This document shows, piece by piece, positions 2,876 through 2,997 of a stretch of 32,000 bases of DNA (positions are counted from its first letter, which is position 1; every line of letters begins with the position of its first letter). The notes beneath the pieces are model-generated. The model was not told the DNA's origin. It saw only the letters and a program-made list of their open reading frames with translations, and did not search any database. A program made the position numbers and the translations under genes. This stretch comes from Nostoc punctiforme PCC 73102 (GTDB lineage Bacteria; Cyanobacteriota; Cyanobacteriia; Cyanobacteriales; Nostocaceae). The stretch spans positions 1,440,001 to 1,472,000 of the forward strand of contig NC_010628.1 of the NCBI RefSeq assembly GCF_000020025.1, given 5' to 3'.

Positions 2876-2997
2876 CTTCGTGCCCTAACTGAAAAAGCTT
2901 ACATACTAGCCGAATGGTAAGGCACTTGACTGAAGATCAAGCAACTACGGGTTCAAATCCCGTGTGTGAATCAACAGCTTTTTCGACTTGCACGAAG
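2876..2997 (+). ncRNA. Y-RNA-like module Y4 (YrlA-type with a tRNA-Phe-like domain)
   Basis: The closing helix CUUCGUGC (2876-2883) / GCACGAAG (2990-2997) is perfect over 8 bp, and the second helix GAAAAAGCU/AGCUUUUUC is also perfect. The interior has an acceptor-like CAUAC/GUGUG, a D-arm GCC-gaaugguaa-GGC and an anticodon arm CUUGA-CUGAAGA-UCAAG (7-nt loop with U33 and GAA at the anticodon position). The T-arm is ACGGG-UUCAAAU-CCCGU. Confidence 0.7.

Follow-up and report, generated by a model that had tools for sequence, protein, structure and literature searches.

Organisation of the locus

The 32,000-nucleotide window analysed here (Nostoc punctiforme PCC 73102, contig NC_010628.1, positions 1,440,001 to 1,472,000) contains, between a gene for a conserved hypothetical protein of 240 amino acids (aa) and a gene for a 477-aa protein with the fold of Ro60, a 126-nucleotide (nt) RNA in which a complete tRNA-like cloverleaf is held at its acceptor end by a two-helix clamp (2874-2999, + strand; Table 1). 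This clamped tRNA-like RNA is a real and strongly conserved element whose structure is under selection. Its orthologs are found in at least 66 of 81 cyanobacterial loci (the window and 80 genome loci fetched around homologs of the 477-aa protein gene) and represent 62 distinct sequences. The RNA ends 337 nt upstream of the Ro60-fold gene, a linkage shared by 66 or more of the 81 loci, and the clamp itself recurs in the window around other cargoes.

Structure of the clamped tRNA-like RNA

Read from 5' to 3', the RNA is composed of CACUUCGUGC-CCUAACU-GAAAAAGCU-[72-nt cloverleaf]-CAAC-AGCUUUUUC-GACUU-GCACGAAGCG. All the elements listed in the initial annotation, which was made from the sequence alone, are present. 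The two perfect helices are there, the outer one pairing CUUCGUGC (2876-2883) with GCACGAAG (2990-2997) and the inner, A/U-rich one pairing GAAAAAGCU with AGCUUUUUC; the outer helix extends past one A.C mismatch to C2874:G2999, and CCUAACU faces GACUU in an internal loop. The cloverleaf core (2900-2971, 72 nt) contains the anticodon arm as described, with a 5-bp stem (CUUGA/UCAAG) and the loop CUGAAGA, comprising U33, GAA at positions 34-36 and the purine G37, as well as the GG of the D loop (G18 and G19) and the UUCAAAU T loop, enclosed by ACGGG and CCCGU. Three details of that annotation required adjustment. The acceptor, given as about 5 bp, has seven positions, UACAUAC with GUGUGAA forming six pairs (one U.G) and an A2.A71 mismatch. 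It was said to be continuous with the clamp, which holds for its 5' side, stacked straight onto the inner helix, but not for its 3' side, where a 5-nt bulge (UCAAC) occupies the place of the discriminator and CCA. Finally, the RNA was reported to start 9 nt after the stop of the 240-aa open reading frame (ORF); this stop ends at 2867 and 2876 is indeed the ninth base, but the extended helix begins at 2874 and the spacer is therefore 6 nt. The same spacing of 6 nt was observed in 50 of the 57 loci measured.

The Rfam tRNA model (RF00005) is matched end to end at 57.6 bits, well above its gathering score of 29 (E = 4e-10 in 32 kb), and ARAGORN assigns the core as tRNA-Phe(GAA). The minimum free energy fold (-37.7 kcal/mol, z = -3.4) gives back both the clamp and the cloverleaf.

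Table 1. Coordinates of the clamped tRNA-like RNA, its neighbouring genes and the related RNA elements in the window
Feature	Position	Strand	Evidence or remark
Outer clamp helix, 5' strand CACUUCGUGC	2874..2883	+	Pairs with 2990-2999; 99% paired (columns 1-10 with 119-128, alignment A2)
Internal loop, 5' side CCUAACU	2884..2890	+	CCUAAC in 58/62 orthologs
Inner helix, 5' strand GAAAAAGCU	2891..2899	+	Pairs with 2976-2984; 96.8% paired; two-sided changes at two pairs
Acceptor-like 5' strand UACAUAC	2900..2906	+	Invariant, 62/62; pairs with 2964-2970
U8, A9, D arm (GCCG / AAUGGUA / AGGC), A26	2907..2925	+	Alignment to the Rfam tRNA model
Anticodon-like arm CUUGA/UCAAG, loop CUGAAGA (GAA 2933-2935)	2926..2942	+	Stem 97% paired; compensatory change at 4/5 pairs
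Variable region CAACU and T arm (ACGGG / UUCAAAU / CCCGU)	2943..2963	+	T stem 99.4% paired; C:G<->U:A and G:C<->A:U changes
Acceptor-like 3' strand GUGUGAA	2964..2970	+	Pairs with 2900-2906; U5:G68 becomes U:A in 10 orthologs
5-nt bulge UCAAC, place of discriminator and CCA	2971..2975	+	U73 in 57/62; CAAC in 61/62
Inner helix, 3' strand AGCUUUUUC	2976..2984	+	Partner of 2891-2899
Internal loop, 3' side GACUU	2985..2989	+	RACUU in 62/62 orthologs
Outer helix, 3' strand GCACGAAGCG	2990..2999	+	Partner of 2874-2883
Promoter-like site TTTAAA-16-TAAAAT (putative function)	2843..2870	+	Consensus scan, 9/12; ends 4 nt before the RNA and overlaps the 240-aa ORF stop
Gene for 240-aa conserved hypothetical protein	2145..2867	+	Directly upstream of the clamped tRNA-like RNA
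Gene for 477-aa Ro60-fold protein (HEAT-repeat ring and vWA/MIDAS), presumed partner	3337..4770	+	Profile, AlphaFold2 model, Foldseek
Paralogous clamp RNA with unpermuted tRNA-like cargo	1207..1330	+	ARAGORN 1232-1303; Rfam 35.7 bits
Clamp RNA with cargo like 23S rRNA around H69-H71	1660..1847	+	Alignment to E. coli 23S
Clamp RNA of genuine YrlA topology (permuted: T arm, closed acceptor-like hairpin, D arm)	1859..2021	+	Order of arms
Fifth clamp, nearly without cargo	3204..3273	+	5' leader of the Ro60-like gene, ~65 nt before the start codon
Mini RNA like the tmRNA tRNA-like domain (acceptor, T arm, ...CUCCACUA end)	1056..1139	+	Rfam tmRNA, 46.6 bits

Conservation and covariation

In the alignment of the 62 distinct orthologs, 93.9% of the cells form standard pairs, compared with 29-49% after sliding the partners by 1-3 columns. 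Two-sided (compensatory) changes are seen at 12 pairs, and none of 500 shuffles attained the observed values. They affect every helix but the acceptor, and RNAalifold independently gives the same clamp and cloverleaf structure. In the outer helix, G:C<->A:U and C:G<->U:A double changes are found at two pairs, and the 5' strand is nearly invariant. The tertiary signatures of tRNA are also retained: U8:A14, G19:C56 and U54:A58 are invariant (62/62), G18 is present in 60 sequences, and the Levitt pair 15:48 covaries (A:U in 59, G:C in 2). The acceptor differs in its behaviour: UACAUAC, its 5' strand, is the same in every ortholog, and all 62 have the A2.A71 mismatch. If the anticodon loop is left out, the nucleotide diversity (pi) of the RNA amounts to 0.04-0.09; the four-fold degenerate sites of the adjacent gene have 0.15-0.30. 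The determinants of the L shape (U8:A14, G18/G19 with U55/C56, U54:A58, 15:48 and all four stems) are under strong purifying selection.

The anticodon-like loop

The conservation of the fold does not extend to the anticodon letters. No sites of the RNA vary more than positions 34 and 35 (pi = 0.55 each), and of the 66 orthologs only 16 have GAA. Elsewhere at least 13 different triplets are found (UAA, UGA, AAA, UUU, CAA, CUA, UCA, GCA, GCG, UGG, GAU, UAU, UUG), and in three genomes (L014, L019 and L028) a 4-nt GAGA loop takes the place of the 7-nt loop. CUGAAGA is found 12 times, CUUAAGA 10 times and CUUGAGA 9 times, followed by many singletons; accordingly, the ARAGORN types range over Phe, Leu, Ser, Lys, Cys, Arg, Pro, Ile, Gln, "Pyl" and "SeC". 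What is kept is the frame around the triplet, Y32-U33-N34-N35-A36-R37-A38, with U33 in 62/63, A36 in 57/66 and a purine at position 37 in 65/66 orthologs. Diversity of the triplet (pi 0.39-0.44) exceeds the 0.15-0.30 of four-fold degenerate sites in the adjacent gene, and in a bootstrap that concerns only three sites its excess over random four-fold-site triplets has a p-value of 0.012 for the close Nostoc group and of 0.087 for all loci together. The anticodon is at least unconstrained; faster-than-neutral change (diversifying selection) is suggested by these values without being established.

Mimicry of one specific tRNA species, as the initial annotation proposed, is contradicted by the 16 GAA loops among 66, the other triplets and the GAGA tetraloops. 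Since the anticodon varies among orthologs, recognition by an anticodon-specific tRNA-modifying or tRNA-cleaving enzyme is not indicated either, and the data point instead to a generic tRNA shape. Nor is the RNA a working tRNA-Phe. A73, the discriminator, is an identity element for phenylalanyl-tRNA synthetase. Here U73 is present in 57/62 orthologs, the A2.A71 mismatch replaces a full 7-bp acceptor, and a free or processable CCA gives way to UCAAC followed by the clamp; ARAGORN finds no tRNA-Phe gene proper in the 32-kb window. Because of the variable triplet, U73, the 2:71 mismatch and the missing CCA, the RNA is neither a decoding tRNA-Phe nor its specific mimic, and the initial verdict of a structured, non-decoding tRNA-like RNA in a Ro-type locus stands.

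The Ro60-like protein and the 240-aa protein

The Ro-type context of the locus, also part of that verdict, rests on the 477-aa protein encoded downstream, which has the Ro60 fold. Its homologs share at least 80% identity among the best 120, and all named sources are cyanobacterial. In a single-sequence search of the PDB, only a weak match to a "TROVE domain-containing protein" of Thermus phage phiLo was obtained (E = 4e-4). A family profile built from 40 diverse members, by contrast, matches human Ro60 (5.5e-16), the Thermus-phage Ro60 (6.7e-14), Xenopus Ro (2.4e-12) and Deinococcus Rsr (2.2e-7). The AlphaFold2 model (predicted local distance difference test score, pLDDT, 89.7) shows a HEAT-repeat ring and a C-terminal vWA domain with a MIDAS motif (metal-ion-dependent adhesion site), and the top 13 Foldseek hits in the PDB are all Ro60/Rsr, with full-length superposition and template modelling (TM) scores of 0.56-0.69 (12 at 0.62-0.69). 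The MIDAS-type residues D300, S302, S304, T362 and D386 are invariant in the family alignment of the same 40 members. Pfam shows the vWA domain only: the TROVE model is not matched by the 477-aa protein or by the sampled family members, and vWA_Ro60 is matched by 7 of the 40. As this large branch (1011 representative clusters) is missed by the TROVE model, TROVE-based surveys have probably overlooked these loci.

The 240-aa ORF was detected by tblastn in 66 loci at 55-100% identity and by ORF clustering in 62 of the 81. The protein has 553 homologs, and all source names among the 120 listed are cyanobacterial. Profile searches against Pfam, NCBIfam, PHROG, PADLOC and PDB sequences gave no match, and for the AlphaFold2 model (pLDDT 72) Foldseek returned no PDB match better than E = 0.4.

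Recurrence of the clamp with other cargoes

The clamp motif GYGCCCYRAY-N6-AGYNTACAYA occurs five times in the 32 kb, always on the + strand (at 1213, 1666, 1865, 2880 and 3206), with none expected by chance. GYGCCCYRAY opens all five clamps, each copy being matched downstream by ...GCUUYUNNRACUUGYRYGG..., and UACAYAC also follows the clamp in modules whose cargo is not a tRNA. An Rfam (15) search at E <= 10 over 900-3400 gave matches of tRNA/tmRNA type only, and no Y RNA, YrlA or other family over the clamp.

The cargoes are diverse (Table 1). In the family of the first RNA (1207-1330), 41 of 69 related copies have the loop CUCUAAA, with an amber-suppressor-like CUA; the window copy has a 6-nt loop. 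Its acceptor is followed by an ACCA-C bulge, a closed mimic of the mature 3' end of tRNA. The 23S-like cargo of the second includes AUAACGGCCCUAAGGUAG, a 17/18 match to E. coli 23S 1916-1933, within a local alignment covering 1915-1969 that only 1 of 1000 shuffles equals in score. The third, of YrlA topology, has in its T loop an insertion of ~25 nt (GCAGGU[ACCCUACGGGAACGCUACGCGAACG]AUUCCUGU) that is found neither in the related locus L002 nor in most other loci. The fifth clamp, nearly empty and located in the Ro60-like leader, is a candidate site of autoregulatory binding; equivalent leader clamps are present in L079 and L080. The tmRNA-like mini RNA at 1056-1139 lacks the mRNA and pseudoknot part, falls just under the tmRNA gathering score (46.6 against 47 bits) and has no identified clamp around it. 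A second T-arm/...AUCCACUA mini-helix was noticed near 1325-1385.

Another module is absent from the 32-kb window and was found in L002 (7790-8000), ~1.4 kb downstream of the Ro60-like gene; similar RNAs occur in most other loci. This clamp RNA combines a mimic of the sarcin-ricin loop, in which CUAGUACGAGAGGA is identical to E. coli 23S 2652-2665 (14/14; 3 of 1000 shuffles score as well), with a mimic of the GTPase-associated centre, given by a 60-nt ungapped alignment to 23S 1054-1113 with 45/60 identical positions (0 of 1000 shuffles as good). Lastly, one minimal clamp (GCCUGCGCCCUGACGUGGGAAGCAUACACAC...GGCUUCCCCGACUUGUGCGGGC) was seen at ~4170-4240 (-) of a GC-rich IMG/VR contig (L082). 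A phage origin of the clamp was considered and rejected, as the sole viral contig matching the clamp pattern has no Ro-like gene nearby.

Transcription

All elements lie on the + strand. A promoter-like site stronger than the one directly before the RNA was detected by consensus scan at 946-974, upstream of the entire clamp array, and no strong + strand terminator was found before the Ro60-like gene. The CTAAAAT box in front of the RNA is kept at equal distance even in loci lacking the 240-aa ORF (e.g. L053, L055, L057). In view of the one-strand layout without a strong terminator, co-transcription with the 240-aa ORF, as initially implied, is plausible; given the conserved -10-like box, a promoter of the RNA's own is likewise possible.

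Comparison with known Y RNAs and tRNA mimics

In YrlA the tRNA mimic is circularly permuted, running from the T arm through a closed acceptor hairpin to the D arm; a terminal Ro-binding stem replaces the anticodon stem, and both an anticodon loop and a CCA end are missing (PMC4201824, Chen et al. 2014; 10.1101/312249, Wang et al. 2018). Its 5' strand carries GNCGAAN0-1G (PMC4201824), also described as a conserved CGAA. YrlA is a ligand of Ro60/Rsr and is modified in vivo by TruB and DusA. The clamped RNA shares with YrlA of Salmonella Typhimurium, Mycobacterium smegmatis and phages its position beside a Ro60 ortholog, as bacterial Y RNAs adjoin rsr, its terminal stem built from both ends of the molecule, a tRNA-like domain whose D and T arms are conserved, a covarying 15:48 Levitt pair and the occurrence of several Y RNAs per locus. 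The name "YrlA-like" given to it in the initial annotation nevertheless does not fit: the arms follow in the unpermuted order (D, anticodon, variable, T), the anticodon arm and variable loop are complete, the termini and the clamp are at the acceptor end, GNCGAA is absent, and the presumed partner protein is missed by Pfam TROVE. If a Y RNA is taken more broadly as an RNA encoded beside Ro60 whose ends pair in a stem that has conserved unpaired positions and is joined to a separate module, the clamped RNA does have these properties, Ro60 binding being putative.

In topology it is closer to Yrn1 of Deinococcus radiodurans. Yrn1 is likewise unpermuted, with a tRNA-like part joined to the Ro-binding stem via the acceptor side and a 5-bp "anticodon" stem whose loop is no working anticodon; it has only partial D-loop features, a 6-nt loop, no variable arm and a metazoan Y RNA-like Ro-binding helix (PMC4201824), whereas the clamped RNA is a complete cloverleaf with a different, two-helix clamp. 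The tRNA-like domain of tmRNA and the viral 3' tRNA-like structure of turnip yellow mosaic virus are also L-shaped tRNA mimics inside larger RNAs. These have a free CCA and are aminoacylated (10.1101/312249), unlike the present RNA, whose 3' end runs into the clamp and whose NCCA place is the closed bulge UCAAC. Thermus phage phiLo encodes Yrl1 and Yrl2 just upstream of a divergent Ro60 homolog (PDB 9L5Y, 9KOP), which is the second-best PDB match of our family profile and the closest by single-sequence search. The phiLo Y-like RNAs were identified by the CGAA motif, and no shared clamp sequence is evident. In the full-text literature searched, the clamp family, an unpermuted full-cloverleaf Y RNA and an rRNA-mimic Y-RNA cargo are undescribed, although they may have been listed earlier, e.g. 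in the supplement of Chen et al. 2014.

Possible functions of the clamped RNA

On balance, we favor the view that a divergent cyanobacterial Ro60-like protein has in the clamped RNA a ligand of Y-RNA type. This ligand would display a generic tRNA shape for a tRNA-binding partner, and the clamp would block any tRNA function. As the clamp is constant while the cargo varies, the former would be the protein-binding module and the latter the effector or bait. The clamp (outer helix, CCUAAC/RACUU loop, inner helix and UACAUAC) would thereby serve as a handle, most likely for the Ro60-like ring, and by keeping the ends closed would prevent the cargo from acting as a decoding tRNA. The cargo, an unpermuted cloverleaf, would offer this partner its elbow, acceptor region and NCCA-like bulge. 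In analogy to YrlA and Yrn1, the RNA may tether the Ro60-like protein to a tRNA-recognising factor or may itself be a tRNA-shaped bait. Transcription, binding by the Ro60-like protein and the nature of the tRNA-binding partner are predicted, and the Y-RNA-type partnership, although plausible, is putative.

Several observations weigh against this assignment. The GNCGAAN0-1G motif of known bacterial Y RNAs is absent, the 5' strand reading CACUUCGUGCCCUAAC in all 62 orthologs; the minority of orthologs with CGAA have it on the 3' strand only. Because the known Ro60-binding motif is lacking, it is linkage only that would connect the clamp with the Ro60-like protein, and the conserved 69-aa and 240-aa proteins of the locus, which have no assigned function, could be alternative clamp binders. 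Moreover, the minimal clamp of L082 has no detectable Ro60-like gene within 14.5 kb.

A bait, decoy or sensor for anticodon-directed enzymes (nucleases or modifiers), with positions 34 and 35 diversifying to match the tRNAs under attack, is the closest surviving form of the initial idea, and we regard it as unlikely. It would account for the extreme variability of these two positions and for the excess of triplet diversity in the close Nostoc group, for the persistence of U33, A36, R37 and A38 as a generic anticodon-loop signature, and for sibling clamp RNAs of related loci that mimic the sarcin-ricin loop and GTPase centre, further classic targets of ribotoxins. However, the p-values are marginal and derive from three sites only, so that relaxed constraint fits equally well; three genomes have exchanged the 7-nt loop for GAGA, and the conserved neighbourhood contains no gene recognised as encoding a nuclease or toxin.

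We likewise doubt that the RNA is a processing signal instead of acting in trans; in this view the tRNA-like fold (cut by RNase P/RNase Z) or the clamp helix (cut by RNase III, as in rRNA stalks) would split a polycistronic transcript between the 240-aa ORF and the Ro60-like mRNA. Consistent with such a role are the fixed 6-nt spacing after the ORF stop, the 69-aa ORF that is likewise followed by a clamp RNA, the single-strand layout with its promoter-like site at 946-974 and no strong terminator before the Ro60-like gene, and the cleavage of M. smegmatis YrlA by RNase P (PMC4201824). The near-invariance of CCUAAC, RACUU, UCAAC and UACAUAC across Nostocales and Leptolyngbya-type genomes exceeds the needs of a cleavage site, though, and the RNA with its own -10-like box persists where the 240-aa ORF is missing. 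In addition, the leader is paired up to position -1, which is expected to disfavour RNase P.

A genuine tRNA gene or precursor (tRNA-Phe) released by RNase P/RNase Z, or a pseudogene decaying from a tRNA array, is highly improbable and was rejected, for in spite of the ARAGORN and Rfam calls, the 7-position acceptor, the canonical 5-bp stem and 7-nt loop and the tRNA genes adjoining the Ro60-like locus in L074, L077 and L078, the triplet differs among orthologs and includes nonsense-type CUA and UCA, some loops have 4 nt, A2.A71 is invariant, U73 replaces A73, CCA is absent, the 5' acceptor strand is common to clamp RNAs that are not tRNAs, and purifying selection (pi of 0.04-0.09 against 0.15-0.30 at synonymous sites) together with compensatory changes excludes a pseudogene.

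A Y-RNA-type ligand of this kind would have some consequences. Bacterial Y RNAs have so far been described as tRNA mimics in permuted form, with no binding partner known for the tRNA-like module; the clamped RNA adds a form that keeps the whole cloverleaf, including the anticodon arm, and is held by its acceptor end. With the elbow, acceptor region and clamp constrained and the anticodon free, the search narrows to partners that read tRNA shape rather than identity.

More tentatively, the clamped RNA may be one cartridge of an undescribed cyanobacterial system, present also in phage-like contexts, in which those parts of the translation machinery that factors and toxins contact would be mimicked by cargoes on a common clamp. 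Its cargoes would comprise two unpermuted tRNA mimics (one usually with a CUA loop and an ACCA bulge), a permuted mimic of YrlA type, a 23S H69-H71-like segment, the sarcin-ricin/GTPase-associated-centre mimic of related loci and the tmRNA-domain-like element just upstream; its proteins would be the Ro60-like/vWA protein, a 69-aa protein ending in Gly and perhaps ubiquitin-like, an E1-like ThiF and two without assigned function. If this is true, the battery could provide decoys for, or sensors of, whatever agents attack tRNA and ribosomes, and the hypervariable positions 34-35 would reflect this conflict. If the sibling rRNA-mimic cargoes are genuine, Ro60-type ribonucleoprotein particles would display ribosomal functional centres besides tRNA, and this would tie Ro60 systems to surveillance or protection of the translation apparatus in a way that can be tested.

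Associated genes and boundaries of the locus

The 69-aa ORF (1441-1650, + strand) is found in 76 of the 81 loci, ends in ...RPEAVYG and is directly followed by a clamp RNA. Downstream in related loci (cf. L001 10250-10888) are a ThiF/E1-like gene (63/81) and a 277-aa gene without assigned function (66/81). Neither the 69-aa nor the 277-aa ORF has a Pfam match, even at E <= 5. A phage-like contig (L083) has the same gene set beside a portal gene, with a Ro60-like gene of 30% identity, a 77-aa ORF ending in ...RPSEVFG, a 269-aa ORF, a 124-aa ORF (faint JAB match, E = 0.13) and ThiF. This arrangement suggests that a ubiquitin-like/E1 module is linked to this Ro60 branch; the 69-aa protein may be ubiquitin-like, as judged only from its C-terminal Gly and the linked E1-like gene.

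In three more distant loci (L074, L077 and L078, the last being a Leptolyngbya plasmid), the Ro60-like gene and clamp RNAs adjoin tRNA genes, two in L074 and long arrays in L077 (9 genes) and L078 (~20). These arrays resemble the stress-induced L-arrays of Anabaena, in the description of which Ro60 is not mentioned (PMC8421152).

In the window, positions 1-861 correspond to a small insertion element with a DUF772/DDE transposase ORF (77-679) and terminal inverted repeats of ~20 bp (CAGCUGGCGAAUAGGGGGUC at 1-20 and its complement at 842-861). The stretch that is syntenic with the related loci starts at 865, right where this element sits, and extends as far as the Ro60-like stop codon, so that this genome does not have the downstream half of the system in adjacent position. 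A Shine-Dalgarno-like box (GAGGUGA) and an ORF are found after each clamp RNA (2055-2075, 3020-3105 and 1433-1452), for instance a predicted ORF of 23 codons (3034-3105; MKKINSFNIEPEDNCQYPSKRNW) after the clamped tRNA-like RNA.

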